Source: Squalus acanthias (Eukaryota). Taken from it: 64,000 nucleotides of DNA. The notes under the pieces were generated by a model, which made no database searches, had not been told where the DNA came from, and was given only the letters and a program-made list of their open reading frames with translations. Shown here one piece after another: positions 2,863 to 63,990 of the stretch. The stretch is taken from the NCBI GenBank assembly GCA_030390025.1, contig CM059432.1, positions 2,542,001-2,606,000 of the forward strand, in the 5' to 3' direction. The first letter of the stretch is position 1; every line of letters begins with the position of its first letter. Made by a program: the position numbers and the translations under genes.

Positions 2863-4069
2863 TGCTCAGGTTGATGGCTTTAAATCACTGGTCTGCATCA
2901 AGTTAGCTCATCTTTGCTGGGGGAGTGGTGGGGCCACGATAATTGATCTCAGTCTGTCTAATCTGTGAGGAGGTGATTGCAATGTATTGAGCGATCTTCG
3001 CTCAGAGAATGTGTGTGGATGTACAGAACTTGGCTGGGGTGTGATTCTGCCCAACCCGCACCCTAACCACCCAGGATAAATATCCTACCGACACTCATAG
3101 TCTAGACTCACACACAAAGACCGTTAAGTTTGAGCTAGTTACTCGAGGGCTGCTAGCACATTTTGGAAGCACATGTCGCATGCAAAGCTGAGATCGATAG
3201 ATTTTTGGACTCTCGGGGAATCCAGGGATATGGGGATCGGGCGGGAAAGTGGAGTTGAGGTCGAAGATCAGCCATGATCTTATTGAATGGCGGAGCAGGC
3301 TCGAGGGGCCGAATGGCCGACTCCTAGCTCTTATGTCATCATATTGAGAAGTACTTCTTCATACAAAAAGAGTGATTAGTACATGGAGTGGGCTTCCAGA
3401 TATATTGGGAGGTGAAAACATACAAAACTGATGGGCAGGAAAAGACCAGTTGGTCCAGCATGTCATGATGGCCAGAGCATCATGACCAGACTCTTTATTC
3501 CTCCCTCCCCTCCCCTCCCCCCAAAACACACTCCACAGCCATGTAATCTCCCCAGAGAGACAAATAAACAGAGGAAAAACTCCAGGGCCAATAAAGAAAA
3601 AAGAAACTCTGGAAAACTCCTCTCCGACCCCCGCAGGCGATCGAAACCCAGTCCGGGAGCTCACAGGGAACTGGAATCAATGAAGGAACAATGAGGTGTA
3701 ATGGCCGGGGTGTGGGGTTCACAACAGGTTCTATAAGGATAGATGAATTAAGATGGGCCGAATGGCCTTCCTCATCTGTAACTATCTGCTGACTCACTGC
3801 TTTTCAAGAGGGGGAAAAAAAGGGAGAAAAATCAGGGGAGTGGAAAGATAGGAAGAGATCAGAAACAGACAGAAGATAAAAGGCTGCGCAACATTCTTCG
3901 ATTCTCTCGGCAATGAAACACAGCTCGGATGGGAAGCACCATCTGAGGAAAGTGGACACTACAGATTATCCAAACAAAATGCATCAAAATATTTTCCATT
4001 GACATGACTGAAAATAACTTATAATAAAAAAGTCTGTGGGATGTTGTCCAGAGGATACATAGAATGGAC

Positions 4070-4388
4070 ATTCGAATGAGACGTTAAACCGAGGCCCCGT
4101 CTGCCCTCTCGGGTGGATGTAAAAGATCCCACGGCCACTATTTCGAAGAAGAGCAGGGGAGTTCTCCCCGGTGTCCTGGGCCAATATTTATCCCTCAATC
4201 AACATCACTAAAAAAAACAGGTTATCTGGTCATTGCTGTTTGTGGGAGCTTGCTGTGCGCAAATTGGCTGCTGCGTTTCCTACATTACAACAGTGACTCC
4301 ACTTCAAAAGTATTTCATTGGCTGTAAAGCGCTTTGGGACGTCCTGAGGTGGTGAAAGGCGCTATATAAATGTAAGTCTTCCTTTCCT
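4070..4388 (+). mobile_element. DeuSINE, 5'-truncated
   Basis: Core and tail closely match the other copies. Confidence 0.8.
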
Positions 4389-4481
4389 TCCGGATATTAC
4401 ATCCATCAATATACGTCACCACCTCATCACCAAGTCTCATCCACAACAAGCCATTCCCTGCTTATATTTATCAGATCAGCT

Positions 4482-5117
4482 CAACAACAACAACTTGTAT
4501 TTATATAGCGCCTTCAACATAGTAAAACGTCCCAAGGTGCTTCACAGGAGCAATTATCAAACAAAATTTAATATCGAGCCACATGAGATATTAGGGCAGG
4601 TGACCAAAAGCTTGGTCAAAGAGGTAGGTTTTAAGGAGCGTCTTAAAGGAGGAGAGAGAGGAGGAGGCGCGGAGAGGTTTAGGGAGGGAATTCCAGAGCC
4701 GAGGGCCTAGGCAGCTGAAGGCACGGCCACCAATGGTGGAGCGATTAAAATCGGGGATGCGCAAGAGGTCAGAATTGGAGGAGCGCAGAGATCTCGGAGG
4801 GTTGCAGGCAATGTTTCCGTTAATTTTTTTTTGGGTGCTCGGCCCCTTTACGATTGAAAATACCGCGCATGCCTGGTTTCTCCTATTGAAAAGACGGCAA
4901 GCCAGCTGTGTGGGAGGTACAGAGCGCTGTACAGCTTAAAGGGAACATTGGCTGTAGGAGGTTACAGAGGTAGGGAGGGGGGGCGAGGCCATGGAGGGAT
5001 TTGAAAACAAGGATGAGAATTTTAAAATCGAGGCGTTGCTCAAACGGGGAGCCAATGTCGGTCAGCGAGCACAGGGGGTGAGAGGGGTGAACGGGACTTG
5101 GTGCGAGTTAGGACACG
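4482..5117 (-). mobile_element. L2 LINE 3' fragment interrupted by a hAT MITE
   Basis: Minus strand reads TIGGRAFSCLGP..WNSLP and ends in the tail AAGGCGCTATATAAATACAAG(TTG)n. Confidence 0.8.
4809..4950. mobile_element. Short hAT-type MITE (CAATGTTCCC family)
   Basis: TIRs CAATGTTTCC / GGGAACATTG. Same family as the copies with perfect 8-bp TSDs. Confidence 0.75.
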
Positions 5118-5529
5118 ACTCCCCATCTCCCTTCCAGTTGCTCGAAGTTAGTTTGGGGACTGCAGACAGTTCATGTCTCCTGTCAATAGTCTTGATGGGG
5201 AACGCACTGCTGCGGTCAGGACTGCTTTTGTAGGAGTTTCCTCCACTCGGGGACGGGAGTACTCTGTACCCCATCGGGTGGCCTTGGCTAGGAACTAACT
5301 ATCGGAGAGTTAGAATATCAGCCAATACCGGACTCGAACACTTTGGGGTGGCAAGGCAGAAGCTTGATCATGAGATACTGCACCCTCTCCCACTTCAATG
5401 GCCACAACATTTAATTCATTGGTTCGATGGATTATGAAATGGACAAGTAAACTCAACTTGTTTTGTTTTTAAGAATTCCCAGTCTTTTTATTCCCATTGT
5501 CTGGGCCAAGAACAGCAAATAAAACAAAA

Positions 5530-5945
5530 AGACTTGCATTTCTCCAGCGCCTTTCACCACCTCAGGACGTCCCAAAGCGCTTTACAGCCAATGAAGTACT
5601 TTTTGAAGTGGAGTCACTGTTGTAATGCTGGAAACGCGGCAGTCAATTTGCGCACAGCAAGCTCCCACAAACAGCAAGGTGATAATGATCAGATAATCTG
5701 TTTTTAGTGATGTTGGTTGAGGGATAAATATTGGCCCAGGACACCGGGGGATAACTCCCCTGCTCTTCTTCGAAATAATGCCATGGGATCTTTTAAATCC
5801 ACCCCAGAGGGCAGAAAACCGGCACCTCCGACAGTGCAGCGTTCTCTCAGTGTTAGCCTTTGTGCTCAAGTCTCCGGAGCGGGACTTGAACCCACAACCT
5901 TCTGACTCGGAGGCGAGGGTGCTGCCCACTGAGCCACGGCTGACA
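5530..5945 (-). mobile_element. DeuSINE
   Basis: tRNA-derived head (TGGCTCAGTGGG, GGTTCAAGTCC) on the minus strand, core with an internal deletion, and tail. Confidence 0.8.
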
Positions 5946-6377
5946 CGATGCCCCCAGATCTCAGCACATCCCACTCTGAACTAGCTCCCCTGAAAGGCGA
6001 TTTTGGTTTTAAATCCTTCCTCTCCCCCCCACCCCACATCCATCAGGCACCCTTGGTTTCCTTCCCAAGTAGTATACGCAAGCCTGCAGGATGACCGTCG
6101 ACCGGCCATGCGACTGTGTGGGCATCACAGCTGAGCCAGATCCTTTATTCACTTGTTGAGTTTTGTAATGACTGGGTTTTCTGACAAAAGATCAGAAGCA
6201 AGAATTCTGGCTGATGTTGGCCCCCAACTCCCTTCCCCAAGCACATCGACACCAATTATAATGCTTCATCCAGGCTGTTAGACTGAATTTCCCCCCCCCC
6301 CCTCTACACTTAAGTACAACAATGTGCTTCAGTCCAGTGGATCAGGCTCCTGTTTGTAAAATAAATTTGATTTTAGA

Positions 6378-6902
6378 ATCATAGAAATTCAGGACACAGA
6401 AGGAGGCCATTCAGCCCAACGTGTCTGTGCCGGCCGACAAAGAGCTCTCCAGCCTAATCCCACTTTCCAGCTCTTGGTCCGTAGCCCTGTAGGTTACGGC
6501 ACTTCAGGGGCATATCCAAGTACTTTTTAAATGTGATGAGGGTTTCTGCCTCTACCACCCTTTCAGGCAGTGAGTTCCAGACCCCCACCACCCTCCTGAG
6601 TGAAAAAAGTTCTCCTCAACTCCCCTCTAATTCTTCCACCAATTACTTTAAATCTATGCCTCCTGGTTATTGACCTCTTTGCTAAGGGAAATAGGTCCTT
6701 CCTATCCACTCTATCTAGGCCCCTCATAATTTTATACCCCTCAATTAAGTCTCCCCTCAGCCTCCTCTGTTGCAAAGAAAACAACCCCAGCCTATCCAAT
6801 CTTTCCTCAGAGCTAAAATTCTCCAGCCCAGGCAACATCCTCGTAAATCTCCTCCGTACCCTCTCCAGTGCGATCACACCTTTCCTGTAATGTGGTGACC
6901 AC
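6378..6902 (-). mobile_element. CR1 LINE 3' fragment abutting the SS18 exon 10 donor
   Basis: ORF 6563-6925 [30 protein letters not shown]. Confidence 0.85.
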
Positions 6903-6936
6903 ATTGATTTGCGTAAACACGGCACACATCCCGTAC

Positions 6937-7064
6937 CTGGTCATACCCATAAGGCCTCTGCTGCTGCTGTGGGGGGCCGGGTTGGGGGGGTCTGTATCCT
7001 CCGTACTGCTGACCTTGAGCTTGAGGATAGTTGGTGTACTGGCTTGGAGCAGCTTGTGAAGGAC
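6937..7064 (-). CDS. SS18: SS18 coding exon (human exon 10 equivalent), 128 nt
   Basis: cag|GT CCT TCA...TAT GAC CAG|gtac. Encodes GPSQAAPSQYTNYPQAQGQQYGGYRPPQPGPPQQQQRPYGYDQ, matching the SS18 QPGY C-terminus. Confidence 0.95.
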
Positions 7065-7848
7065 CTGCAAGCAGAAAAGTATTTCAAATCAATCAAACAC
7101 ACTGAAATATTGTACTTCCCAGTTTCGCAGCCGATTCACACTTGGGTGGTGGGAGGGAGCTGAGAAATAGGGGGCGTAGCCTTAAAATTAGAGCTAGGCT
7201 GTTCAGGGGTGATGTCAGGAAACATTTCTTCACACAAAGTGTAGTGGAAACCTGGAACAGAAGAACTAGGAGCAGGAGTCGGCCATACGGCCCCTCGAGC
7301 CTACTCCGCCATTCAATAAGATCATGGCTGATCTTCACCCTCAACACTTTCCCGCCCGATCCCCATATCCCTTGATTCCCCTAGAGCCCAAAATCTATCG
7401 ATCTCAGCCTTGAATATACTCAGCGACTGAGCCTCCACAGCCCTCTGGGGCAGAGAATTCCAAAGATTCACAACACTCTGAGTGAAGAAATTGCTCAGCT
7501 CAGTTCAAAATGGCCGACCCCTTATCCTGAGACTCTGCCCCCGAGTTCTAGACTCTCCACCCAGGGGGAAACAGCCTCTCAGCATCTACCCTGTCAATCC
7601 CCCTCAGAATTTGATACGTTTCAATGAGCTGTTGAGGTTGGGGGTGATGGGTGAACGGGCCTTGGTGCGAGTGAGGATACAGGCAGCAGAGTTTTGGATC
7701 AGCTCAAGTTTACGACCAAAAGCTTAAAGCAAAGCTGCTATTGCACCAGACAAATTAATAGCCAGGTTTATGTATTTAAAAAGACTTAAAAATAAGGATT
7801 TTTTTTTTTTTACAATATATATGTTAATTGTTGAGAACAGTCTTCCAT

Positions 7849-8298
7849 CTCAGCTGTGGCTCAGTGGGTAGCACTCTCGCCTCTGAGGCCGAAGGTTGTG
7901 GGTTCAAGTCCCACTCCAGAGACTTGAGCACAAAAATCTCGGCTGACACTCCCAGTGCAGTACTGAGGGAGTGCTGCACTGTCGGAGGTGCCGTCTTTCG
8001 GATGAGAGGTTAAGCTGAGACCCCGTCTGCCCCCTCAGGTGGACGTAAAGGATCCCACGGTCACTATTTTGAAGAAGAGCAAGGGGGAGTTCTCCCCGGT
8101 GTCCTGGGGCCAATATTTATCACTCAATCAACATCACAAAAACAGGTTATCTGGTCATTTATCACATTGCTGTTTGTGGGAGCTTGCTGTGCGCAAATTG
8201 GCTGCTGTGTTTCCCACATTACAACAGCAACTGCACTTCATTGGCTGTAAAGTGTCCGGTGGTCGTGAAAGGCGCTATAGAAATGCAAGTCCTTTCTT
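7849..8298 (+). mobile_element. DeuSINE, near full length
   Basis: Pol III A box TGGCTCAGTGGG, B box GGTTCAAGTCC, Deu core, L2-like tail. Confidence 0.85.
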
Positions 8299-8415
8299 TG
8301 TTTATCATTGTTTTGTTTTTAAATTTCCCAACAAACACCAGTGTGTGCGGCAATCTTTGATGCTTTTGGTAAATTCTTGGACTGGATTTTATGGTGAGAC
8401 TTGGAAAAAAAAATA

Positions 8416-8956
8416 TTCATTCTCTGGATGTGGGCGTCCCGACTTGTCCGTGAGAAGGTGCTGGCGGGCCGCCTTCTTAAACCGCTGCAGTCCGTGTGGT
8501 GAAGTGGTTTAGATACAACGGAGTGACTCGCTCGGCTATTCAGAGGGCAGTTAAGAGTGAATCACGTCGGCGTGGGGACTGGAGTCACGAATAGGCCCAG
8601 ACCAGGGAAGGACGGCAGGTTGGTTTCCTACAGTACAACGTTAGTCTGTGTCCAGGATACGCTTCAACAGGGCTTCACCGGCTGGAAAGCACTTTGGGTC
8701 GTCCAGAGGTGGTGAAAGGCGCCGGAGAAATGCAAGACTATCTTTCCTTCCCTAAAGGACAGTCGTGAACCAGTTGGGGTTTTTTTTGTTTTTTGTTGAA
8801 CGTGACAATCCGACAGCTTCATGGGTCACTTTTACTGATAAGAGCTTTTTAAAAAAAAAATTTAAAAATTGAATTCAAATTCCCAAACTGCCTAGGGTGG
8901 GATTTGAACTTACATTGTCTGGATTATTAGACCAGTAACATAACCATTACACCAGC
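8416..8956 (-). mobile_element. tRNA-derived SINE with a Meta-domain-like core and family-B LINE tail, interrupted by a DeuSINE tail fragment (about 8621-8742)
   Basis: Minus strand: GGTGTAATGGTT...GTTCAAATCCC head, core CTGGTTCAC..GTCCTTTAGGGAAGGAAA..CCTGCCGTCCTT..GTGACTCCAG..CTCTTAACTGCCCTCTG, tail CCACACGGACTGCAGCGGTT..GACGCCCACATCC. Confidence 0.65.
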
Positions 8957-9110
8957 GTGCCACAGAAGAGTTGACATGGTGCTAGGCAGTGAGGTGGAAA
9001 GTCGAATCTACACCATGTTCAATTTCTGCCGACCAATAGGATGGGCAATAAATGCCGGCCCGGTCACGGAGGCCCACATCCCAGGATGAATTAAAAAAAC
9101 TGGTCTCGAG

Positions 9111-11708
9111 CAGAGGCTCTCAAACTTCTTTCTCAAATGGATTAGTAATCACGGACCCCCATCTAAAATTTAATTCCAACACTATATATAATATATTTGG
9201 AAGCTGATATTTCCCTACCCACACAGCTGCCGTGGTAGCCAAATTCTCTCTCTATTTTATTTTCCCGCTGATCAGGCACACAGGAGAGGGGGCGCGGCCA
9301 TGTTCAAACTGGCCGCACGTGACCAGATATTACTGCTCGGAATGGTTCGTTGACAAGACGTCGTGCGGCGATTAGAAGAGGATCACGCCAATCATTAGCA
9401 GCACGCTGGCGAGGGATTGGAAATTCTCGCGCGCAACTGCGATGATGGCTGAAAGTGCAGCGTTCAGTACACCAGCACAGACTGTGTGTGGGGTTCAGTA
9501 CACCAGCACAGACTGTGTGTGGGGTTCAGTACACCAGCACAGGGCTGTGTGCAGGGTTCAGTACACCAGCACAGGGCTGTGCGCAGAGTTCAGTACACCA
9601 GCACAGGGCTGTGTGCGGGGTTCAGTACACCAGCACTGGGCTGTGTGCAGGGTTCAGTACACCAGCACAGACTGTGTGCAGGGTTCAGTACACCAGCACA
9701 GGGCTGTGTGTGCGCAGGGTTCAGTACACCAGCACAGGGCTGTGTGCAGAGTTCAGTACACCAGCACAGGGCTGTGTGTGGGGTTCAGTACACCAGCACA
9801 GGGCTGTGTGTGGGGTTCAGTACACCAGCACAGGGCTGTGCGTGCAGGGTTCAGTACACCAGCACAGGGCTGTGTGTGTGTGAGGTTCAGTACACCAGCA
9901 CAGGGCTGTGTGTGTGTGGGGTTCAGTACACCAGCACAGGGCTGTGTGTGTGCGGGGTTCAGTACACCAGCACAGGGCTGTGTGTGTGCAGGGTTCAGTA
10001 CACCAGCACAGGGCTGTGTGTGTGCAGGGTTCAGTACACCAGCACAGGGCTGTGTGTGTGCAGGGTTCAGTACACCAGCACAGGGCTGTGTGCGGGGTTC
10101 AGTACACCAGCACAGGGCTGTGTGTGGGGTTCAGTACACCAGCACAGGGCTGTGTGTGCAGGGTTCAGTACACCAGCACAGGGCTGTGTGTGTGTGAGGT
10201 TCAGTACACCAGCACAGGGCTGTGTGTGCGCGGGGTTCAGTACACCAGCACAGGGCTGTGTGCAGGGTTCAGTACACCAGCACAGGGCTGTGTGTGCAGG
10301 GTTCAGTACACCAGCACAGGGCTGTGTGTGGGGTTCAGTACACCAGCACAGGGCTGTGTGTGTGCGCAGGGTTCAGTACACCAGCACAGGGCTGTGTGTG
10401 TGTGAGGTTCAGTACACCAGCACAGGGCTGTGTGTGTGCGGGGTTCAGTACACCAGCACAGGGCTGTGTGTGGGGTTCAGTACACCAGCACAGGGCTGTG
10501 TGTGTGTGAGGTTCAGTACACCAGCACAGGGCTGTGTGTGTGTGAGGTTCAGTACACCAGCACAGGGCTGTGTGTGTGCAGGGTTCAGTACACCAGCACA
10601 GGGCTGTGTGTGGGGTTCAGTACACCAGCACAGGGCTGTGTGTGTGTGGGGTTCAGTTCACCAGCACAGGGCTGTGTGTGTGGGGTTCAGTACACCAGCA
10701 CAGGGCTGTGTGTGTGCAGGGTTCAGTACACCAGCACAGGGCTGTGTGTGGGGTTCAGTACACCAGCACAGGGCTGTGTGTGTGTGGGGTTCAGTACACC
10801 AGCACAGGGCTGTGTGTGTGTGGGGTTCAGTACACCAGCACAGGGCTGTGTGTGTGTGGGGTTCAGTACACCAGCACAGGGCTGTGTGTGTGTGGGGTTC
10901 AGTACACCAGCACAGGGCTGTGTGTGTGTGGGGTTCAGTACACCAGCACAGGGCTGTGTGTGTGTGGGGTTCAGTACACCAGCACAGGGCTGTGTGTGTG
11001 TGGGGTTCAGTACACCAGCACAGGGCTGTGTGTGTGTGGGGTTCAGTACACCAGCACAGGGCTGTGTGTGTGGGGTTCAGTTCACCAGCACAGGGCTGTG
11101 TGTGTGTGGGGTTCAGTACACCAACACAGGGCTGTGTGTGTGTGGGGTTCAGTACACCAACACAGGGCTGTGTGTGGGGTTCAGTTCACCAGCACAGGGC
11201 TGTGTGTGGGGTTCAGTACACCAGCACAGGGCTGTGTATGCAGGGTTCAGTACACCAGCACAGGGCTGTGTGCGGGGTTCAGTACACCAGCACAGGGCTG
11301 TGTGCGGGGTTCAGTACACCAGCACAGGGCTGTGTGTGTGCAGGGTTCAGTACACCAGCACAGGGCTGTGTGTGTGTGAGGTTCAGTACACCAGCACAGG
11401 GCTGTGTGTGTGTGCGGGGTTCAGTACACCAGCACAGGGCTGTGTGTGTGTGGGGTTCAGTACACCAGCACAGGGCTGTGTGTGGGGTTCAGTACACCAG
11501 CACAGGGCTGTGTGTGGGGTTCAGTACACCAGCACGGACTGTGTGTGTGAGGTTCAGTACACCAACACAGGGCTGTGTGCAGAGTTCAGTACACCAGCAC
11601 AGGGCTGTGTGTGCAGGGTTCAGTACACCAGCACAGGGCTGTGTGTGTGCGGGGTTCAGTACACCACCCCGTGGAATGTCTCCGCTGACCCAGGTTTGAG
11701 AACCACTG
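9111..11708. mobile_element. Non-autonomous hAT (Charlie-type) element containing a minisatellite
   Basis: TIRs CAGAGGCTCTCAAAC / GTTTGAGAACCACTG. Flanks GTCTCGAG / GTCCAGAG match at 6 of 8 and resemble NTCTAGAN. Subterminal GGACCCC-like motifs. Confidence 0.7.
9455..11666. repeat. Minisatellite, roughly 60-65 units of about 31-38 bp
   Basis: Near-invariant GTTCAGTACACCAGCACAGGGCT followed by variable (GT)n and CAGG/CGGG/GGG/GAG. Confidence 0.97.
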
Positions 11709-12702: not shown

Positions 12703-12916
12703 TAATACAAAAGCAAAAATACCGTGGCTGCTGGAAATCTGTAATAAAAACAGAAAATGCTGTAAACGCTCAGCGGGTCAGGCGGCCTCTGCGGAGAGAG
12801 AAACAGAATCAACGTTTCAGGTCGGTGGCCTTTGCGTTAACTCTGTTTCTCCCTCGCTCCACAGACGCTGCCTGACCCGCTGAGTGTTTCCAGCAATTTT
12901 CTGTTTTTATTTTTAA
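12703..12916. mobile_element. Fold-back Penelope-like fragment (family 1) inserted in a CR1 tail
   Basis: Inverted arms of the family-1 tail (CCACAGACGCTGCCTGACCCGCTGAG). Flanking direct repeat GGGCAGTGGGAC at 12691-702 and 12917-28. Confidence 0.7.
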
Positions 12917-16153: not shown

Positions 16154-16521
16154 TCAGATGTGACTCAGTGGGCAGCACCCTCGCCTCTGAGTCAGAAGGT
16201 TGTGGGTTCAAGTCCCACTCCAGAGACTTGAGCACAAGAAGCTAGGCTGACACTCCAGCACAGTGCTGAGGGAGCGCCGCACTGTCGGAGGGGCAGTGCT
16301 GAGGGAGCGCCGCACTGTCGGAGGGGCAGTGCTGAGGGAGCGCCGCACTGTCGGAGGGGCAGTGCTGAGGGAGCGCCGCACTGTCGGAGGGGCAGTGCTG
16401 AGGGAGCGCCGCACTGTCGGAGGGGCAGTGCTGAGGGAGCGCCGCACTGTCGGAGGGGCAGTGCTGAGGGAGCGCCGCACTGTCGGAGCGGCAGTGCTGA
16501 GGGAGCGCCGCACTGTCGGAT
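16154..16521 (+). mobile_element. 3'-truncated DeuSINE whose body is about 8 tandem 33-bp units
   Basis: tRNA head followed by (CAGTGCTGAGGGAGCGCCGCACTGTCGGAGGGG)n at 16261-16520. Confidence 0.85.
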
Positions 16522-16677
16522 GACCACAAATGATTCTTTGCTGACCTGCCTTGTTTTTCTGGTATTCGCCACCTAGAGTTCTGTACTGTGGATGTGTATG
16601 CTTCTTAAATTTGAAAGTAGGCGATCACTAAAATAAAGACCAACTGTACATATTTAGACAATAACCCTGCAGTCACC

Positions 16678-17427: not shown

Positions 17428-20075
17428 ATAGAAACATAGAAGATAGGAGCAGGAGTAGGCCAATCGGCCCCTTGAGCCTGTTCCGCCATTTAATGAGATC
17501 ATGACTGATCATCCAAATTCAGTACCCTGTCCCTGCTTTCTCCCCATGTCCCTCGATCCCTTTAGCCTTAAGAAATATATCTAACTCCTTCTTGAATATA
17601 TTTAATGAATTGGCCTCAACTGGCTTCTGTGGCTGTCTGTGTGGAGTTTGCACATTCTCCCCGTGTCTGCGTGGGTTTCCTCCGGGTGCTCCGGTTTCCT
17701 CCCACAGTCCAAAAATGTGCGGGTTAGGTTGATTTGGCTATGATAAATTGACCCTTAGTGTTAGGGGGGGATTAAATATGTGGGGTTATGGGGATAGGAT
17801 GGGATATGTTAGGGGGAATTAAATACGTGGGGTTATGGGGGTAGGGTGGGATATGTGTACTGTGGGGATTAAAGCAGGGACAGGGTACTGGATTTGGATG
17901 ATCAGCCATGATCGTATTGAATGGTGGAGCAGGCTCGACGGGCCGAATGGCCTACTCCTGCTCCTAGATTCTATGTTTCTATGTGGCAGAGAATTCCACA
18001 GGTTCACCACTCTCTGGGTGAAGAAATTCCTCCTCATCTCAGTCCTAAATGGCTTACCCCTTATCCTCAGACTGTGACCCCTGGTTCTGGACTCCCCCAC
18101 CATCGGGAACATCCTTCCTGCATCTAGTCTGTCTAGTCCTGTTAGAATTTTATAAGTTTCAATGAGATCCCCTCTCATTCTTCTAAACTCAAGCGAATAT
18201 AAGCCTAATCGACCCAATCTCTCTTCATAAGTCATTCCTGCCATCCCAGGTATCAGTCTGGTAAATCTTCGCTGCAGTCCCTCCATCGCAAGAACATCCT
18301 TCCTCAGATAAGGCGACCAAAACTGCACACAATACTCAAGGTGTGGTCTCACCAAGGCCCTGTACAACTGCAGCAAGACATCCTTGCTCCTGTACTCCAA
18401 TCCTCTCGCTATGAAGGCCAGCATACCATTTGCCTTCTTAACCGCCTGCTGCACCTGCATGCTTACCTTCAGCGACTGGTGCACAAGGACACCCAGGTCT
18501 CGTTGCACTTCCCCTTTTCCCAATCTATTGCCATTCAGATAATAATCTGTCTTCCTGTTTTTGCCACCAAAGTGGATAACCTTGCATTTATCCACATTAT
18601 ACTGCATCGGCCATGCATCTGCCCAATCACCCAACCTGTCCAAATCATACTGGAGTTTCTCGGCATCCTCCTCACAGGACACACGCCCACCCAGCTTTGT
18701 GTCATCTGCAAACTTAGAGATATTATATCTAGTTCCCTCGTCTAGATCATTAATATATATAGTGAATAGCTGGGGTCCTAGCACCGATCCCTGCGGTACC
18801 CCACTAGTCACTGCCTGCCACTCGGAAAAAGACCCATTTATTCCAACTCTTTGCTTCCTGTCTGCCAACCAGTTCTCTATCCAAGTCAATACCTTACCCC
18901 CAATATCATGTGCTTTAACTTTACACGCTAATCTCTTATGCGGGACCTTATCGAAAGCCTTCTGAAAGTCCAAATACACCACATCCACTGGTTCTCCCTT
19001 ATCTATTCTACCAGTTACATCCTCAAAAAATTCCAGTAGATTTGTCAAGCACAATTTACCTTTTGTAAATCCATGTTGACTTTGTCTGATCCTGTCACTG
19101 TTTTCCAAGTGCTCTGCTGTTACATCTTTTATAATGGACTCTAGCATTTTCCCCACTACCGATGTCAGGCTTACCGGTCTATAATTCCCCGTTTTCTCTC
19201 TACCACCTTTTTTAAATAGTGGGGTTACATTAGCTACCCTCCAATCCATGGGAACTGTTCCAGAGTCTGCAGAATTTTGGAAGATGACCAGCAATGCATC
19301 TACTATTTCTAGGGCCACTTCCTTAAGTACCCTAGGATGTAGATCATCAGGCCCTGGGGATTTATCGGCCTTCAATCCCGTCAATTTCCCTAACACCATT
19401 TCCCTACAAATACTGATTTCATTCAATTCCTCACTCTCATTAGACCCTATGTTCCCCGACATCTCTGGGAGGTTATTTGTCTCCTCCTTTGTGAAGACAG
19501 AACCAAAGTATGTATTTAATTGGTCTGCCATTTCTTTGTTCCCCATTATAAATTCCCCTGATTCTGACTGCAAGGGACCTACGCTTGACTTCACCAATCC
19601 TTTTCTCTTCACATATCTATAGAAGCTTTTACAGTCAGTTTTTATGTTCCCTGCAAGCTTACTCTCATACTCTATTTTCCCCCTCTTAATTAATCCCTTT
19701 GTCCTCCTTTGCTGAATCCTAAACTGCTCCCAATCCTCAGGTTTGCTGCTTTTTCTGGCCAATTTACATGTCCTCTCCTTGGATCTTATGCTATCCCTAA
19801 TTTCCCTTGTTAGCCACGGTTGAGTCACCTTTTTTGTTTTATTTTTATGCCAAACAGGGATGAACAAATTCTGTAGTTCATCCATGCGATCTTTAAATGT
19901 TTGCCATTGCCTATCCACCGTCAACCCTTTAAGTAACGTTCCCCAATCCATCCTAGCTAACTCGAGCCTCATACCATCGTAGTTTCCTTTATTTAAATTC
20001 TGGACCCTAGTCTCTGAGTCAACTACTTCACTCTCCATCTTAATGAAGAATTCTATCATATTATGATCGCTCCTC
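17428..20075 (-). mobile_element. Young CR1 LINE with a long uninterrupted ORF2 segment (end of APE endonuclease through RT)
   Basis: ORF 17819-20146 contains [38 protein letters not shown] and FADD. The 3' end is split by a V-SINE. Confidence 0.95.
17634..17981 (+). mobile_element. V-SINE (HE1-like), 5'-truncated, with a CR1 tail
   Basis: V-domain GTGGAGTTTGCACATTCTCCCCGTGTCTGCGTGGGTTTCCTCCGGGTGCTCCGGTTTCCTCCCAC. TSD TGTGGC at 17628-33 and 17982-87. Confidence 0.85.
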
Positions 20076-20097
20076 CATATACCAATTTCAGTTGCTA

Positions 20098-20347
20098 GCT
20101 CCAATTCTGGCCTCCTGCGCGTCCCCGATTTCCATCGCTCCACCATTGGTGGCCGTGCCTTCAGCTGCCTGGGTCCTTAGCTCTGGAATTCCCTCCCTAA
20201 ACCTCTCTACATCCTTTAAGATGCTCCTTTAAACCTACCTCTTTGACCAAGCTTTTGGCCATCTGTCCCATTATCTCCTTATGCGGCTCGGTGTCAAGTT
20301 TTGTTGGGACATTAAGGCGCTATATAAATGCAAGTTGATGTTGTTGT
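20098..20347 (+). mobile_element. L2 LINE 3' fragment
   Basis: TIGGRAFSCLGP motif and L2 tail. Confidence 0.75.
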
Positions 20348-32167: not shown

Positions 32168-32949
32168 CTAAAAAAGTAACAGTCTCGCGTTAAGTGTAGC
32201 CTTCGCCGTTTGGTATTTATTTATAGATATAAAAATATACAGATACAACTAGCTGATTAAATAGAAACTTTTTAAAGTTTTACGGTGTACACGACTTGTG
32301 AACAGTGAAAGAACAATTTCATCAGAACACAGATAGCACAAATTCCATTAAATACGTCCGCTAGTTTTGACAGAGAGAGACACACACAGGCATTTCATCA
32401 CTATACAGGTGCGGTACCGCCGCCCCGGTGTTAAAGAAAGCACACAACAGGTTGTCCGTGAGTCGGCGCAGGCTTTTCACTCGAGAACACAGAATTGGAA
32501 AGCCAACAATTTTCGTTTACGCATTCTTCATTTGCATTGGTAGTTTCATCTCCACCGTCACAGGAATCGCAGACACGACTTGTCCCCTTTTATAAAACCT
32601 GCGCAAGCTTCCCTCCTTGAAACAAGAGTCGAAAGTACTCGACAGGGGACTGCAGTACTGTCTGAAATGACTCATGTCCGCACCGACAAAGTGTAGTTTT
32701 TAGTTTACTAAAACTTTCCATCAACACGGTTTGGAAGAGCAGGGAAGTCGCACATTTTGGGGAGCTCTCATCATTTAGCAAACCCACCTCAGCGTTCCGG
32801 AGACCCGCACTGGAAATCTTAAGACGGAAACGTGCTTATCACCTGCTGTGGAACATAGGAACAGGAGGAGGCCATTCAGCCCCTCGAGCCTGTTCCGCCA
32901 TTCAATGAGATCATGGCTGATCTGCGACCCAACTCCATATACCCGCCTT

Positions 32950-33216
32950 AACCTTTCCCATTACCATCTCGTCTTGCCTTGAGCATCTCTTAATGTCTCT
33001 ACTTACCATAGACCACCCCTTTTGTTCTTTTATTCCTCCCCCTTGCTTTTTTATCTGTTTCATTTCCTGCTTTTTTCTCAGTTCTGACGAAGGGTTTCGA
33101 CCTGAAACGTTAACTCTGTTTCTCTTTCCACGGATGTTGCCCTGGCCTGCTGAGTTTTTCCAGCGTTTTCTGTTGTTGTTTCAATTTTCTAGCATCCGCA
33201 GTATTTTGCTATCGTA
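32950..33216 (+). mobile_element. Short Penelope-like element (family 1) inserted in a minus-strand CR1 tail (about 32850-33497)
   Basis: 16-bp direct repeat TCCATATACCCGCCTT at 32934-49 and 33217-32. Contains a hammerhead motif. Confidence 0.75.
33080..33115 (+). ncRNA. Putative minimal type-I hammerhead ribozyme
   Basis: AGTT-CTGACGA-A-GGGT TTCG ACCT-GAAA-CG-TT-AACT. Conserved core, 4-bp stem I, stem II, palindromic ACGT stem III. Confidence 0.7.
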
Positions 33217-33882
33217 TCCATATACCCGCCTTTGCCCCATATCCCTTAATGGCTTTGGTTAACAAAAATGTATCAAGCTCACATTTAAAATTAATTGATC
33301 TAGCATCAATTGCCAATGGTGGAAGAGAGTTCCAAACTTCCACCACCCTTTGTGTGTTGAAGTGTTTCCTAATTTCACTCCTGAAAGGTCTGGCTCTAAT
33401 TTTTAGACTATGCCCCCTAGTCCTAGAATCCCCAACCAGCGGAAATAGTTTCTCTCTATCTACCCTATCTGTTCCCCTTAATATCTTGAAAACTATACAG
33501 GGCTTCATTACTTAATCTACCCCAAAATAACAAATATTGATAAAAGAAAGGTCAAAGGTAAATCAATCAGTGACATCGGTTTGGTCCTAATGTGACGAGT
33601 GAAACAAGTTCCCAGAAGGTCACCATCACAAAGAGGAATGCTGCAACTGCTCATCCAAGATTGGGGTGGAAAAGTGCAAATTCATCCCTTGAGCGCTAAT
33701 TTCCTTCGGGACTTCACGAAACACTTTCCATAATACATTGGCACAATTAATTATCCGGGAATACTGATGTGAGGTACACACACAAACACAGACATGTGCT
33801 GATATGCCTGTTGGAACAGATTAAACCTAGTATCTGGGCACACAGTTACGCTAGCCAGTATAATGTTACTGGTTGGGCTCAC

Positions 33883-35905: not shown

Positions 35906-35969
35906 AGCTGTTATTGTTGTTGACGTACTCCAGTTGCAGTTAAGTTGGTTATACAAGCGTTTGAAGTAC

Positions 35970-36185
35970 CTTGGCTTGGCTGCATGTTCATGTTTGTTCG
36001 GGGGCCATAGTTACCCATCGACTGGCCTTGGTTCATATTCATTTGGTTCTGCACTGGCATGCCCTGCGAAGATGGCACTGAATGGTTGTAGCCTCCCATG
36101 GAGCCGTGGCTACTCGTTGGCATGTTGACGGAGGCATTGGCCATGCTGGGTTGGCCTGGTCCTTGCACCGGTATGTGGTTTGGTC
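35970..36185 (-). CDS. SS18: SS18 coding exon (human exon 5 equivalent), 216 nt
   Basis: cag|GA CCA AAC CAC...AGC CAA G|gtac. Encodes GPNHIPVQGPGQPSMANASVNMPTSSHGSMGGYNHSVPSSQGMPVQNQMNMNQGQSMGNYGPRTNMNMQPSQ. Confidence 0.96.
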
Positions 36186-36577
36186 CTGGTAGATGCGGAA
36201 AAAACAAAACAGCTATTACAGAAACTGATCAGTATTATTTTTTTTATCCCTCTTCGAAAGTAACGCATTTGTACTGAAGTAGAGTTAAACCCACTTGCAC
36301 ATTTTACTATCAAGAGTTGCGCAGAGTTACAGGTCGAAGAGTAACCCAGAATGGAAGTCAATCTGAATACAGTTTGCAGCACTGGATGAGCAGAAATTTC
36401 CTCCAACTAAATATTGGGAAGACCAAAGCCATTCTCCTCGGGCCCCGCCACAAACTCCGTTCACTAACCACCGACCCCATCACTCACCCTGGCAATGGTC
36501 TAAGGCTGAACCGCACTGTTAGCAACCTTGGGGTCATAGGTGACCCCGAGACGAGCTTCCGACTGCATAACCGCGCC

Positions 36578-41232: not shown

Positions 41233-42000
41233 CCCTTTCCCCGTAGCCCTGAAAAAAATTTTCCTTCAGGTACTTATCCAACTCCCTTTTGAAAGCCACG
41301 ATTGAGTCTGCCTCCACCACCCTTTCAGGCAATGCATTCCAGATCCTAACCACTCGCTGCGTAAAAAAGTTTTTCCTCATGTCGCCTTTGGTTCTTTTGC
41401 CAATCACCTTAAATCTGTGTCCTGTTTCTCGACCCTTCCGCCAATGGGAACAGTTTCCCTCTATCTACTCTGTCCAGACCCCTCATGATTTTGAACACCT
41501 CTATCAAATCTCCTCTCAACCTTCTCTGCTCCAAGGGGAACAACCCCAGCTTCTCCAGTCTATCCACGCAACTGAAGTCCCTCATCCTTGGAATCATTCT
41601 TGTAAATCTTTTCTGCACCCTCTCTAAGGCCTTCACATCCTTCCTAAAGTGAGGTGCCCAGAATTGGACACAATACTCCAGTTGAGGCCGAACCAGTGTT
41701 TTATACAGGTTCATCATCATTTCCATGCTTTTGTACTCCATGCCTCTATTCATGAAGCGGAGATGCCGGTGTTGGACTGGGGTGGACAAAAGTGAGAAGT
41801 CGCACAACACCAGGTTATAGTCCAACAGTTTTATTTGAAATCACAAGCTTTCGGAGCAGCTGCTCTTTCGTCAGGTGAAGTGAAGGAGCAGCGCTCCGAA
41901 AGCTTGTGATTTCAAATAAAACTGTTGGACTATAACCTGGTGTTGTGCGACTTCTCACTTCTATTCATGAAGCCCAGGATCCCGTAAGCTCTTTTAACTG
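41233..42000 (-). mobile_element. CR1 3' fragment interrupted by a Penelope-like fold-back element
   Basis: LYKTLVRPQLEYCVQFWAP...[14 protein letters not shown]. Confidence 0.85.
41758..41960. mobile_element. Fold-back short Penelope-like element (family 2) with a hammerhead at 41841-41878 (minus strand)
   Basis: Inverted arms of about 80 bp (41790-41870 and 41882-41960). Direct repeat CTATTCATGAAG at 41746-57 and 41961-72. Confidence 0.75.
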
Positions 42001-42350: not shown

Positions 42351-42709
42351 GCAGCTGTTGATGATTCTGTTATTCCCATTGACACCTCCGCTAGAACCAT
42401 CCTTTGTTTCTTTACTTGTTCCATTACCATCTCCTGTCGCCTTGCACCATCATCCCTTTTGTCATTTAATCTTTCCTGCCTTCCACCCGATCACAGACCT
42501 TCCCTTTGTTCATTCCTCCCGCCTTTCCCTGCCCCTGCACTTGCTTAAAAACCTGTTACATCTCTAACTTTTTCCAGTTCTGACAAAGGGTCATCGACCT
42601 GAAACATTAACTCTGTTTCTCTCTCCACAGATGTTGCCTGACCTGCTGAGTATTTCCAGCATTTTCTGTTTCTATTTCAGATTTCCAGCATCTGCAGTAT
42701 TTTGCTTTT
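42351..42709 (+). mobile_element. Short Penelope-like element (family 1), degenerate hammerhead at 42576-42612
   Basis: 15-bp direct repeat GCCCTAGTCATATCA at 42336-50 and 42710-24. Same body as 32950-33216. Confidence 0.75.
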
Positions 42710-46981: not shown

Positions 46982-49114
46982 CTAAAGCAGGACAGAGAAG
47001 AGCAAAAGTTAATCGAAAACTCAAGAATCGCTCCTGGTTAGCTCTCACTTTCACACTTAAGTGCAAGTAGTTACGGTCCTCAACACTCACACCGTCCCCA
47101 CTTATTCCGCACAAGCACCCACATTGGGCAAGTGCCGCAGACCACTTGTCATAGGGCTAAAAAGGTTATGAGGGCAGGTTGCACAGACTGGGCTCGTATT
47201 CCCTCGATTATAGCAGATTAAGGGGCGATCTAATTGAGGTGTTTAAGATGATTAAACAAGTTGATAGGGTAGATAGGGAGAAACTATTTCCTCTGGTGGG
47301 GGGAGTCCAGAACAAGTGGGCATAACCTTAAAACTAGAGCCAGGCCGTTCAGGGTCAATGTCTCTCCCCCAAAAAGCTGTTGAGGCTGGGGGGGTCAATT
47401 GATAATTTAAAAACTTGATAGATTTTTGTTGGTTAAGGGTATCAAGGATATGGAACCAAGGCGGGTAGATGGAGTTCAGATACAGATCAGCCATGATCTC
47501 ATTGAATGGCGAAACAAGCTAGAGGGGCTGAATGGCCTCCTCCTGTTCCTATGTCATTTACATAGACGTCAATTACAAGGGCACCGCTTAAACACAGGAA
47601 CAGGAGGAGGCCATTCAGCCCCTCGAGCCTGTTCCGCCATTCAGTGAGATCGTGGCTGATCTGCGACCTAACTCCATATACCCGTCTTTGGCCCATATCC
47701 CTTAATACCTTTGGTTAACAAAAAACTATCAATCTCAGATTTAAAATCAACAATTGATCTAGCATCGATTGCCGTTTGCGGAAGAGAGTTCCAAACTTCC
47801 ACCACCCTTTGTGTGTAGAAGTGTTTCCTAACTTCACTCCTGAAAGGCCTGGCAGTTGTTTTGCGCTTCCTCCTGTGACCCCGAGACCTCCTGCCGTTGC
47901 CGCGTGCCCTCACTGAGCGGGACACCTTCCGGCCCCGTTTTAAAATTACCGGGACAGTCTGACTGCCTCTTAAACGCATCCGGCTCTTGAACCTCCAGCC
48001 CAAGCTGCCCAGGAAATGCGAACGGTGAGATTTCAAAATCCTTGTTACCGTCATAAAATCTCTCTACCATCAATTTCCTATTTGGTGTGTCTGTTGTCAT
48101 TTAGGTTTTGATGTAACAGCACAGTAAATGCATACAGAACACGAAGTGGAGAGGCGGGGTGGGGGCAGTGTAGAAAGAAAGACTTGCATCAAAACAACTT
48201 CATAATTTAAACGCAGTGTTCCAGATGGGGTCTGACCAAGGCTCTGTCCAACTGAAGCAACACAACTTATATTTATATAGTGCCTTGAACTAATAAAACG
48301 TCCCAAGGCGCTTCACAGGAGTGTTATCAAAAAAAAACTAAATTTGACACCGAGCCACATAAGAAGATAGTAGGACAGGTGATCAAAAGCTTGGTCAAAG
48401 AGGTCGGTTTTAAGGAGTGCCTTAAAAGGAGGAGAGAGAGGTGGAGAGGTTTAGGGAGGGAATTCCAGAGCTTAGGGCCCAGGCAGCTGAAGGCACGGCC
48501 GCCAATGGTGGAGCGATTATAATTGGGGATGTTCAAAAAGCCAGAATAGGCAGAGCTTCTGTACTCCACATTTATACAAAATGTTTATAAAGAAATATTG
48601 GTGGGCAAAAGAACCAGAGGGGAGAGGAGAGAATTAATTTTTACACAACGAGTTGTCATGATGTGGAATGCACTGCTGAAAGGGTGGTGGAAGCAAATAG
48701 CAACTTTTAAAAGGGGAATTGGGCAAGTGCTTGTCCCCTGACTCCGCATTCTCTGATCGGATTCATTCGTCTATTAGCTGGCACCTTATCTGAGGCTTCT
48801 TGGAAATCTAGACATATTACATCTACTGCATTACCCTCGTCTACTCTCTCTCTGTTACCTCTTCAAGAATTCAATGAGGTTGGTCAAGCAAGACTTTCCC
48901 TTTTGAAATCCATGTTGACTACTCATTATTATATTTTTGGTTTCGAGTTGTTTTTCCATTTTCTCCTTTAGTAGGGATTCCATTATTTTTCCTACCACCG
49001 ATGTTAAGCTGACTGGTCTGTAATTCCCTGGACATGTTCTATCTCCGTATAACGTTAACTATCCGCCAATCCTTTGGCACTACACCTTTTTCGAATGAAT
49101 TATTAAATGTGTAA

Positions 49115-52679: not shown

Positions 52680-53705
52680 AGGAGCAGGAGTAGGCCATAG
52701 GGCCCCTTGAGCCGTTCAATAAGATCATGGCTGATCATCGACCTCAACTCCACTTTCCCGCCCGATTCCCCATATCTCTTGATTCCCCTAGAGTCCAAAA
52801 ATCTATCGATCTCAGGCTTGAATATACTCAAAGACTCAGCATTCACAGTCCTCTGGGGCAGAGAATTCCAAAGATTCACCACTCTCTGAGTGAAGAAATT
52901 TCTCCTCATCTCAGTCTTAAATGGCCGACCCCTTATCCTGAGACTACGACCCCTAGTTCTAGACTCTCCAGCCAGGGGAATCCCTCAGCATCTACCCTGT
53001 CAATCCCGCTCAGAATCTTATGTTTCAATGAGATCAACTCTCATTCTTCTAAACTCCAGAGAGTTTAGGCCCAATCTACTCAATCTCTCCTCATAGGACA
53101 GCCCTCTCATCCCAGGGATCAATCTAGTGAACCTTCGTTGCACCCCTTCCAAGGCAAGTATATCCTTCCTTAGATAAGGAGACCAAAACTGTGCACAGTA
53201 CTCCAGGTGTGGTCTCACCTGACAAAGGAGCAGCGCTCCAAAAGCTTGTGATTTCAAATAAAACTGTTGGACTATAACCGGGTGTTGTGCGACTTCTCAC
53301 ATTTGTCCACCCCAGTCCAACACCGGCATCTCCGCATCATCACCAAGGCCCTGTACAATTGTAGCAAGACTTCCTTACTCTTGTACTCCAACCCTCTTGC
53401 AATAAAGGCCAATATGCCATCTGCCTTCCTAATTGCTTGCTGTACCTGCTTGCTAACCCTGTGTTCCTGTACGAGGACACCTACATCTCTCTGAACACCA
53501 ACATTTAATAGTTCACTATTTTAAAAATATGCTGTTTTTCTATTCCTACCAAAGTGAATAACCTCACATTTCCCTACATTATATTCCATCTTCCACCTTA
53601 CTGCCCACTCACTGAGTCTATCTATATCCCTTTGCAGACTCTGTGTTCTCCTCACAGCTTACTGTCCCACCCAGCTTTGTATCGTCAGCAAACCTGGATA
53701 CATTG
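52680..53705 (-). mobile_element. CR1 3' part with a family-2 Penelope-like insert (53220-53339)
   Basis: [19 protein letters not shown]. The insert is flanked by a TCACC duplication (53215-19, 53340-44). Confidence 0.8.
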
Positions 53706-58851: not shown

Positions 58852-59239
58852 GAGAAGGTGCAAAAAAGATTTACTAGAATGATACCAGAACGGAGAGGTT
58901 ATACCCATCAGGAAAGATTGAACAGGCTGGGGCTCTTTTCTCTCGAAAACAGAAGGCTGAGGGGTGACCTGATAGAGGCCTTTAAAATTATGAAGGGGTT
59001 TGATAGGACAGACGTAGAGAAGATGTTTCCACTTGTGGCGAGACCAGAAGTAGGGACATTCAATATAAGATAGTCACTAATAAATCCAACAGGGAATTCA
59101 GGAGAGACTTCTTTACCCAGAGAGTGGTGAGAATGTGGAACTCGCTACCACAGGGAGTGGTTGAGGCGAATAGTATAGATGCATTTAAGGGGAAGCTGGA
59201 TAAACACACGAGGGAGAAAGGAATAGAAGGATATGCTAA

Positions 59240-59417
59240 ATAACAACAGAAAACGCTGGAAATACTCAGCAGGCCAGGCAGCATCCGTGGAGAGAGAAAC
59301 AGAGTTAACGTTTCAGGTCGATGACCTTTCGTCAGAACTGGAAAAAAAGCAGGAAATGAAATAGATTTTAAAGCAAGTTTAGGGGCTGGGAAAAGGGGGA
59401 GGGGATGAAAGAACAAA
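59240..59417 (-). mobile_element. Short Penelope-like element (family 1) with an intact hammerhead core at 59303-59339
   Basis: Minus strand AGTT-CTGACGA-A-AGGTC ATC GACCT-GAAA-CG-TT-AACT. Confidence 0.72.
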
Positions 59418-61535: not shown

Positions 61536-62082
61536 CTCTGTTGTTCTTCAAAATAGTGCCATGGGATCTTTATACGTCCACCTGAGAGAACAGATGGGGC
61601 CTTAGATTAACTTCTCATCCGACAGTGCGGCACTCCCTTAGTACTGCCCCTCCGAAGGGGCAGCACTCGCTCAGTATTGCCCCTCCGACAGTGCAGCTCG
61701 CTCTCAGTACTGCCCCTCCGACAGTGCTGCGCTCCCTCAGTACGGCCCCTCCGACAGTGCAGCACTCCCTCAGTACTGTCCCTCCGACAGTGCGGAGCTC
61801 CTCAGTACTGTCCCTCCGACAGTGCAGCTCGCTCTCAGTACTGCCCCTCCGACAGTGCAGCACTCCCTCAGTACTGCCCCTCCGACAGTGCGGCCCTTCC
61901 TCAGTACTGCCCCTCCGACAGTGCGGCCCTTCCTCAGTACTGCACCTCCCACAGTGCGGCGCTCCCTCAGTACTGCACTGGGAGTGTCAGCCTGGATTTC
62001 TGTCCTCAAGTTTCTGGCATGGGACTTGAACCCATGACCTTTTGACTCAGAGGCGAAAATGCTGCCCACCGAGTCACGGTTT
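61536..62082 (-). mobile_element. DeuSINE with about 11 diverged 33-bp units
   Basis: Array at about 61620-61975, head at about 62010-62082. Confidence 0.8.
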
Positions 62083-62583
62083 CCATTTCTGTTCCCTTTT
62101 GAAAGCTGCTCGCCTGCAACATCCTCCAGTCTATGGGACGGCTCCACACCCAGGACAGCAACTCTTCTGTCCCCTCTGCAGATGCTGCCTGACCTGCTGA
62201 ATGTTTCCAGCAGCTTCGGTTTCAGGATGGAGAGCTCTGCATTTATTTACCCCACGCGAAGCAGATAACATCGGGTGCACGGAGTAAAATAGAATAAGCA
62301 ATCATTGTTAAACTTTTGAAGATAGCACTCTCAGATTACTGTGCAATTATCTGCCTGATGGAAGGAGTCTCAGCATCAAGCGCTCACTCCTTGGAGATTG
62401 TAGGTGCAATGACATGAAGAACTTTGCCACAACAATCTTTTGCTCGACGATTTTGCGACTGGATTTGCTTCAACACTTCTTGCGGCGAGTCACAAAAAAT
62501 GGCTCAAATCTGTCATTCTCGAAACTGGCCAAAAAATGCAAGAGGTTTGCAAATATCAAATCAAAAAAGAACAAACTTGTATT

Positions 62584-62725: not shown

Positions 62726-63530
62726 CTTGCATTTCTATAGCGCCTTCTACGACCACCGGACGTCCCAAAGCGCTTTACAGCCAATGAAGTACTTTTGAAG
62801 TGTAGTCACTGTTGTAATGTAGGAAACGCGGCAGCCAATTTGCGCACAGCAAGCTCCCACAAACAGCAATGTGATAATGGCCAGATCATCTGTTTTTTAG
62901 TGATATTGATTGAGGGATAAATATTGGCCCAGGACACCGGGGAGAACTCCCCTGCTCTTCTTCGAAATAGTGCCGTGTACGTCCACTTGAGAGAGCAAAC
63001 GGGGCCTTGGTTTTATGTCTCAGCCGAAAGACGGCACCTCTGACAGTGCAGCACTCCCTCAGCACTGCCCCTCCGACAGTGCAGCCCTCCCTCAGTACTG
63101 CCCCTCCGACAGTGCAGCACTCCCTCAGTACTGCCCCTCCGACAGTGCAGCACTCCCTCAGCACTGCCCCTCCGACAGTGCAGCACTCCCTCAGCACTGC
63201 CCCTCCGACAGTGCAGCACTCCCTCAGCACTGCCCCTCCGACAGTGCAGCACTCCCTCAGCACTGCCCCTCCGACAGTGCAGCACTCCCTCAGCACTGCC
63301 CCTCCGACAGTGCAGCACTCCCTCAGCACTGCCCCTCCGACAGTGCGGACCCTCCGACAGTGCAGCACTCCCTCAGCACTGCCCCTCTGACAGTGCAGCA
63401 CTCCCTCAGCACTGCCCCTCTGACAGTGCAGCACTCCCTCAGCACTGCCCCTCTGACAGTGCAGCACTCCCTCAGCACTGCCCCTCTGACAGTGCAGCAC
63501 TCCCTCAGTACTGGCACCGGGGGAGTGTCG
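62726..63530 (-). mobile_element. DeuSINE with about 14 tandem 33-bp units
   Basis: Array (GACAGTGCAGCACTCCCTCAGCACTGCCCCTCC)n at about 63041-63512. Confidence 0.85.
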
Positions 63531-63990
63531 GCCAGAATGATTCCCGGACTCCAAGGGTTAAGTTATGAGGAGAGATTACACAAACTAGGGATGTATTCCC
63601 TAGAATTTAGAAGGTTAAGGGGTGATCTGATCGAAGTTTTCAGGATATTCAGGGGAACAGATAGGGTAGAGAGAGAGAAACTATTTCCGCTGGTTTGGGA
63701 TTCTAGGACTAGGGGGCATAGTCTAAAAATTAGAGCCAGACCTTTCAGGAGTGAAATTAGGAAACACTTCTACACACAAAGGGTGGTAAAAGTTTGGAAC
63801 TCTTCCGCAAACGGCAATTGATGTTATATCAATTGTTAATTTTAAATGAGATTGATAGATTTCTGTTAACCAAAGGCATTAAGGGATATGGGCAAAGACG
63901 GGTATGTGGAGTTAGGTCGCAGATCAGCCATGATCTCATTGAATGGCAGAACAGGCTGGAGGGGCTGAATGGCCTCCTCCTGTTCCTATG
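63531..63990 (+). mobile_element. CR1 3' fragment
   Basis: [19 protein letters not shown]...RKHFYTQRVVKVWNS plus tail. Confidence 0.85.

Follow-up and report, generated by a model that had tools for sequence, protein, structure and literature searches.

A short insertion carrying a minimal hammerhead ribozyme motif in Squalus acanthias, probably the truncated end of a Penelope-like element

A 64,000-nucleotide stretch of the Squalus acanthias genome (contig CM059432.1 of assembly GCA_030390025.1; hereafter the window) contains a LINE fragment that is interrupted by a short element with a hammerhead ribozyme motif. The locus raises the question of what was inserted, a unit in its own right or the remnant of a longer element, and whether the ribozyme is of any use to the copy that carries it. 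A preliminary description had favoured an abundant non-autonomous retroelement related to Penelope-like elements (PLEs), either retrozyme-like or a solo pLTR.

The insert was found to be 267 bp long (32950-33216) and to lie between two identical 16-bp repeats, which bears out the size and the flanking duplication initially proposed. Uninterrupted copies of the host LINE site are present twice within the 64-kb window. As the flanks of the insert rejoin there as an unbroken LINE 3' end, the insert represents a true insertion with target duplication. The parts of the locus outside the ribozyme motif are the following:

32851..33494, minus strand: host LINE 3' fragment (ORF2 end and 3' region), split by the insert; its C-terminal peptide is of the type encoded by the RVT_1 ORF at 17819-20176
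32934..32949, plus strand: left copy of the 16-bp target-site duplication, present once at the empty sites 63910-63895 and 47673-47688
32950..33079, plus strand: 5'-truncated pyrimidine-rich part of the focal element, 78% C+T; 97 of 127 aligned bases match the copy at 42351, with deletions
33116..33181, plus strand: pLTR body 3' of the ribozyme, ending at the tail-less 3' end of the copy at 59238 and of the inverted arm at 12835-12912
33182..33216, plus strand: optional 3' extension (the Penelope "tail") of 35 nt, the difference between the two family-1 3' ends
33217..33232, plus strand: right copy of the target-site duplication, an exact match to the left copy

The host LINE is one that we take to be a CR1. 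The ORF at 17819-20176 (minus strand) is an ORF2 fragment of 785 codons with RVT_1, and several further LINE fragments, belonging to two or more kinds, also fill the window. At the 3' end of the host LINE (32853-32894) many contigs from four sequencing runs contained joints going back 35-42 bases, so that this end appears to be often tandemly duplicated in other copies. Tandem repeats of other types were observed as well, namely a long minisatellite of 32-36-bp units at 9450-11700 whose open frames reach 748 codons, and one 33-bp unit that was amplified at 2330-2575, 16184-16561, 61565-62041 and 62953-63579, apparently within copies of a dispersed repeat. Every mapped copy of the two element families described below lies in or beside LINE-type repeats; because 62.5% of the window is self-repetitive, a preference for LINE ends is not claimed. 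The insert had been described as devoid of recognisable GIY-YIG or RT coding sequence and this was borne out, with no Pfam family matched in any of the 11 reading frames tested (from 27 listed) of the insert and of its copy at 42351.

Reading of the letters confirmed the motif as first given, including the CUGANGA and GAAA core, the 4-bp stem I and the palindromic ACGT stem III:

33080..33115, plus strand: type-I minimal hammerhead motif; stem I AGTT 33080-83 / AACT 33112-15, core CTGACGA 33084-90, extra A 33091
33092..33103, plus strand: stem II, GGGT-TTCG-ACCT, with G.U as its first pair
33104..33111, plus strand: GAA 33104-06, palindrome ACGT 33107-10 and H17 (T33111), with the cut predicted after GUU at 33111

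A descriptor search or an Rfam search had been proposed as a check on this motif. It passed the former in its strict form (stems I and II and a palindromic stem III), which matched the window twice (33084 on the plus strand and 59335 on the minus strand) and was not matched in 300 order-2 Markov control sequences of 64 kb on both strands. A loose core pattern was only weakly above chance, with 3 matches against 0.8 expected and 3 of 100 shuffles also reaching 3. The Rfam search returned no hammerhead, neither at the gathering threshold over the window nor over 32900-33300 with E raised to 10, where the two matches obtained were chance matches to other families. The core order CUGANGA / GAAA / UH of a type-I hammerhead is intact in two of the three complete copies of the family to which the insert belongs (family 1). 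A short helix I of 4-5 bp, an unpaired base between 9 and 10.1 and a palindromic 15.1-16.1 without loop 3 are likewise present, the palindrome being ACGT in family 1 and AGCT in a second family. The G10.1-C11.1 pair has no match in family 1, where it is replaced by G.U in two and by A-U in one of the three copies; the family-2 copy at 53215 does have G-C. The UUCG cap reported for stem II was found in the focal copy, where it results from a private deletion and substitution, and was ruled out as a family feature, as stem II has 5 bp and a loop of 3 bases in the two other complete copies. Each of four runs contained the extra A, in 12-49 contigs.

A profile search of the window located five family-1 loci. 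In addition to the insert these are:

42351..42709, plus strand: copy of 359 bp with tail and a duplication of about 15 bp; core broken (G8>A, 16.2 G>A)
59238..59417, minus strand: copy with intact core, tail-less, with a 2-base AG duplication only
12707..12916: head-to-head unit with a forward tailed arm at 12707-12833 (minus strand) and an inverted tail-less arm at 12835-12916 (plus strand); duplication of 15/16 bases
62172..62222, plus strand: old scrap of about 50 nt without the hammerhead (E 1.9e-9)

All four related copies that had been proposed, at 12703, 42351, 59240 and about 62160, were thereby found. As hammerhead copies they fared less well, since the core at 42351 is broken, the copy at 12703 starts inside the motif and the one near 62160 is the scrap. 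The 3' part of the insert is identical to that of a sister copy at 95 of 101 positions (94%). Relative to C3, the 5' ends mapped at four of the five loci were all different (-229, -134, -82 and inside the motif) and the 3' ends fell either at +97 or at +129 to +132, roughly 35 nt apart. The 35-nt tail is present in three of the five arms whose 3' end was mapped. No end coincides with the cut site, except roughly that of the inverted arm at 12835. Inverted tail-less arms of this kind adjoin a copy of each family (12835-12916 in family 1 and 41882-41959 in family 2) and are absent from the focal copy. Tandem units each bearing a hammerhead were not found by a search of the whole window or by a second search over 30000-64000, and the longest copy, at 42351, has a 5' end without resemblance to its 3' end. 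A tRNA-derived SINE is not indicated, as no tRNA was found and neither a B box nor a poly(A) end is present on the element strand.

The second family has two copies in the window:

41759..41959, minus strand: head-to-head unit with AGCT palindrome; forward arm with a tail of about 32 nt, inverted tail-less arm, 14-bp duplication
53215..53344, plus strand: tailed copy that begins at stem I; its 5-base duplication corresponds to the stem I arm and C3, and its core is broken by G8>A and G12>A

Its forward copies begin at stem I or just before it (-7). Beyond the core no BLAST similarity to family 1 was observed, and yet the layout is the same, with a 4-bp stem I, an extra A, a 5-bp stem II, a four-base palindrome, a tail of about 32 bases and an inverted tail-less arm. 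When the five complete motifs of both families were aligned, 53 of 55 stem cells paired, as compared with 18-44% in slid controls. Seven of the 11 pairs differ on both sides between the families, which amounts to one contrast between two families and not to independent events; inside family 1, with three complete motifs, no compensatory change was shown. Two of the five motifs carry G8>A, one of them together with G12>A, and these changes are CpG-type decay following insertion. Position N7 of the core is variable. It is C in the window and A in 35% of the depth in run X7, and in protein read-throughs of the repeat it falls in a Met codon, which implies U, in 9 of 25 and in a Thr codon in 6 of 25. 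Motif geometry, the strict descriptor and the paired stems of two families support the identification as a PLE-type minimal hammerhead, as does the published class of such motifs (PMC4209133).

The abundance that had been attributed to the family was supported by contig depth. Summed over two motif bins, depth amounted to 1.4-8.9 million in runs X1, X5 and X7 as compared with 10-30 on unique flank; depth is not copy number, and together with the five loci per 64 kb it suggests a family-1 copy number of the order of 10^5. The repeat was also present in contigs of run X6, which is only guessed to be RNA and whose contigs show no transcription, strand or end. In the run contigs the loose ends and joints belonged mostly to the host LINE, and no upstream extension was obtained; in organism B the orthologous insertion site was spanned by none of the contigs. 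A protein search with the open frame of the 42351 copy gave 27 matches, 26 of which were read-throughs of other copies with unrelated flanks and one a chance match. Alignment of 25 of the 27 (P0005 and P0019 were left out) revealed that in seven read-throughs from other genomes similarity ends at the tail boundary, a class that frameshifts could mimic, and that in 18 it continues; no sequence beyond the long 3' end was shared among the 25. Two of the ten records looked up could be named, from Scyliorhinus torazame and Heterodontus francisci. Since these are a catshark and a horn shark, the family is common to sharks of different orders and its assignment to "this shark lineage" was too narrow. 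Public shark gene models include the repeat-derived peptide (P0019, XP_067897430.1; P0009, GCB70218.1), and these are probably annotation artefacts or exonised copies. A search of published papers gave no description of shark family 1; the supplements of PMC4209133 and 10.64898/2026.07.22.740005 may list it.

Predicted folding was evaluated with ViennaRNA. The focal core was found to pair with the 15.2-1.1 strand at -6.7 kcal/mol as compared with -3.5 kcal/mol for a hammerhead-like fold, the probability of the latter being 0.002, and among dimers the double hammerhead (-3.7) lay far above other structures at -19.9. Dimer cleavage is reportedly the topic of Lunse et al. The predicted trap helix speaks weakly against free cleavage of the focal copy, in a model that ignores core contacts, and the ribozyme of this single copy most likely does not cleave. 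The nearest host exon, a Gln/Pro/Gly/Met-rich coding exon at 35968-36189 with AG and GT borders, is on the minus strand, opposite to the insert. This exon, presumably resembling vertebrate SS18, had no match in Pfam or among PDB sequences.

Taken together, the insert is probably the dead-on-arrival, 5'-truncated terminal module (pLTR and tail) of an endonuclease-positive (EN+) PLE, a module of which some 10^5 copies would be dispersed in cartilaginous fishes. By analogy with the PAc element of the anole, the RT/GIY-YIG protein of the parent element would bind its own RNA and cut both strands of the target, here a LINE, with a 16-base stagger. Of two internal start sites, reverse transcription would then use the distal one, giving rise to the tail, and would stop after 267 nt, which would leave the copy truncated at its 5' end. 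The hammerhead would be selected in the parent pLTR, where tandem units could pair their ACGU palindromes into a double hammerhead, probably with the help of protein; in the focal lone copy it would be a passenger in neutral decay. In each of the two sister copies an open frame runs from the core across the pLTR end and the tail, and on this basis we infer that the ORF may begin within pLTR and tail, as it does in A. vaga Pen2a. Scans for longer copies by DNA pattern gave none in metagenome contigs (two scans), prokaryote genomes or viral contigs, collections that hold little shark DNA. RT or GIY-YIG was found in none of the 27 protein matches and a search for longer proteins yielded none. As no RT/GIY-YIG parent has been linked to family 1, membership in the PLEs rests on non-coding signatures. 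Two points run counter to it, namely the 16-bp duplication, as compared with 8-10 bp in A. vaga, and the missing G10.1-C11.1 pair in all three family-1 copies.

Three other readings were weighed against a truncated PLE end. The insert could belong to a dedicated non-autonomous PLE derivative, a unit of about 360 nt in the manner of a retrozyme monomer or a SINE. Its transcripts from tandem arrays would be cleaved by the hammerhead, a PLE protein would insert them in trans, and the window would contain whole and truncated monomers. The longest copy, 359 bp without coding sequence, and the very high abundance would fit this reading, as would the mean retrozyme consensus of 363 bp given for one chondrichthyan, and the dispersed monomers reported, in excerpts of 10.64898/2026.07.22.740005. 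We nevertheless hold it to be unlikely, given that none of the five family-1 loci has tandem units, that the four 5' ends differ and avoid the cut site apart from the approximate case of the inverted arm at 12835, that the longest copy does not begin as it ends, and that tail and inverted arms call for no separate element. Truncated copies of autonomous PLEs look as these do, with single units, variable 5' ends, a 35-nt tail that may be absent and an inverted arm without tail; the retrozyme-like alternative of the preliminary description is therefore not supported and its solo pLTR reading is.

An accidental resemblance to a hammerhead, within a SINE or LINE fragment that has no relation to PLEs, would agree with the failure of the Rfam search, the disfavoured hammerhead fold and the missing parent. 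It is very improbable in view of the 300 controls without a strict match, a second family of the same geometry with compensatory stems and no BLAST similarity beyond the core, the lack of a tRNA, B box or poly(A) end, and the PLE-type tail and inversion. Preservation of the focal copy as a working ribozyme acting on a host transcript is extremely improbable, even though its core and stems are intact and a private change has given it the UUCG loop. At 94% identity to its sister an intact core would, by our estimate, be expected by chance about half the time, and the copy is a lone monomer without stem III that lies opposite in strand to the nearest host exon and is predicted to form the trap helix.

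The pyrimidine-rich part upstream of the truncated PLE end's ribozyme offers a further lead:

33060..33081, plus strand: pyrimidine run ending in CAG, with AG as the first two bases of stem I; candidate 3' splice acceptor

Each of the three complete family-1 copies has an acceptor-like run with CAG that overlaps the 5' arm of stem I (33060-33083, 42555-42579 and 59336-59360), in a region that is 72-78% C+T throughout and in which stem I also requires the AG. No GTRAG donor was found within the 229 nt upstream of the motif. The intron of D. virilis Penelope ends at helix I, according to excerpts of PMC4209133 and PMC2377424. It is conceivable, if improbable, that the repeat is a ribozyme gated by splicing, in which the acceptor would supply the first two bases of stem I, an N7-dependent trap helix would keep the unspliced monomer off, and splicing together with the PLE protein would switch cleavage on. 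If so, the roughly 10^5 dispersed copies, possibly of a dedicated non-autonomous unit of about 360 nt, would constitute a genome-wide reservoir of cryptic acceptors and cleavage sites in the pre-mRNAs of sharks.

The copies in the window were compared with known systems on the basis of the papers cited. The minimal hammerheads of PLE pLTRs are mostly single copies of truncated PLEs that show no cleavage as monomers and low cleavage as dimers (Cervera and De la Pena 2014, PMC4209133). Those of metazoan PLEs resemble family 1 in being of type I with a 4-bp helix I and an extra base between 9 and 10.1, in having a palindromic 15.2-16.2 without loop 3 and in occurring as single copies dispersed in thousands (PMC4209133). 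They differ in their conserved G10.1-C11.1, for which family 1 has G.U or A-U, and in a helix II of 7-8 bp in Schistosoma as compared with 4-5 bp in the families of the window; the copy number of family 1 is apparently one to two orders above the 4,000-9,000 of coelacanth and Xenopus (PMC4209133). Sharks are not named among the hosts of minimal hammerheads in the excerpts of that paper.

With regard to insertion, the structural traits listed for PLEs are truncation at the 5' end, a truncated copy alongside in inverse orientation and, at one end, a tail of 30-40 bp (10.1101/2021.04.23.441226; PMC3846280), and target duplications of 8-10 bp are given for A. vaga PLEs (PMC3846280). In anole PAc the two internal start sites of reverse transcription delimit the tail, and the protein cuts both target strands; its hammerhead cleaves only with the protein and is not required for insertion in vitro, and RNA ends at its cut site were not seen (PMC11167929). 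Units of EN+ PLEs (Penelope, PAc/Poseidon and A. vaga Pen; PMC11167929, PMC3846280, 10.1101/2021.04.23.441226) share with the copies in the window the 5' truncation, an optional tail of 30-40 nt located about 100-130 nt 3' of the ribozyme core, the inverted tail-less arm, the target duplication and, in the sister copies, a frame open through pLTR end and tail. The window copies differ from them in that no RT/GIY-YIG frame was found, in duplications of 14-16 bp and in the setting of the two 3' ends, which on the ribozyme strand is U-rich rather than AC-rich. Tandem units are what defines a retrozyme (PMC7229834; 10.64898/2026.07.22.740005). The animal non-LTR retrozymes resemble family 1 in being non-coding, 250-360 bp long and PLE-related, with a type-I hammerhead and a large target duplication, whereas family 1 consists of single copies only, with varying 5' ends, tail and inversions, and its hammerhead is minimal and not canonical.

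The class has been known since 2014 and the shark family is an added member of it, the insert being a probable cut-short PLE end with a minimal hammerhead, the main value of which lies in repeat annotation. Its size, its two well-defined 3' ends and its many broken cores also make it good material for the in vivo role of PLE hammerheads, which merits study because the one PLE tested in vitro inserted without need for its hammerhead and showed no RNA ends at the cut site (PMC11167929).
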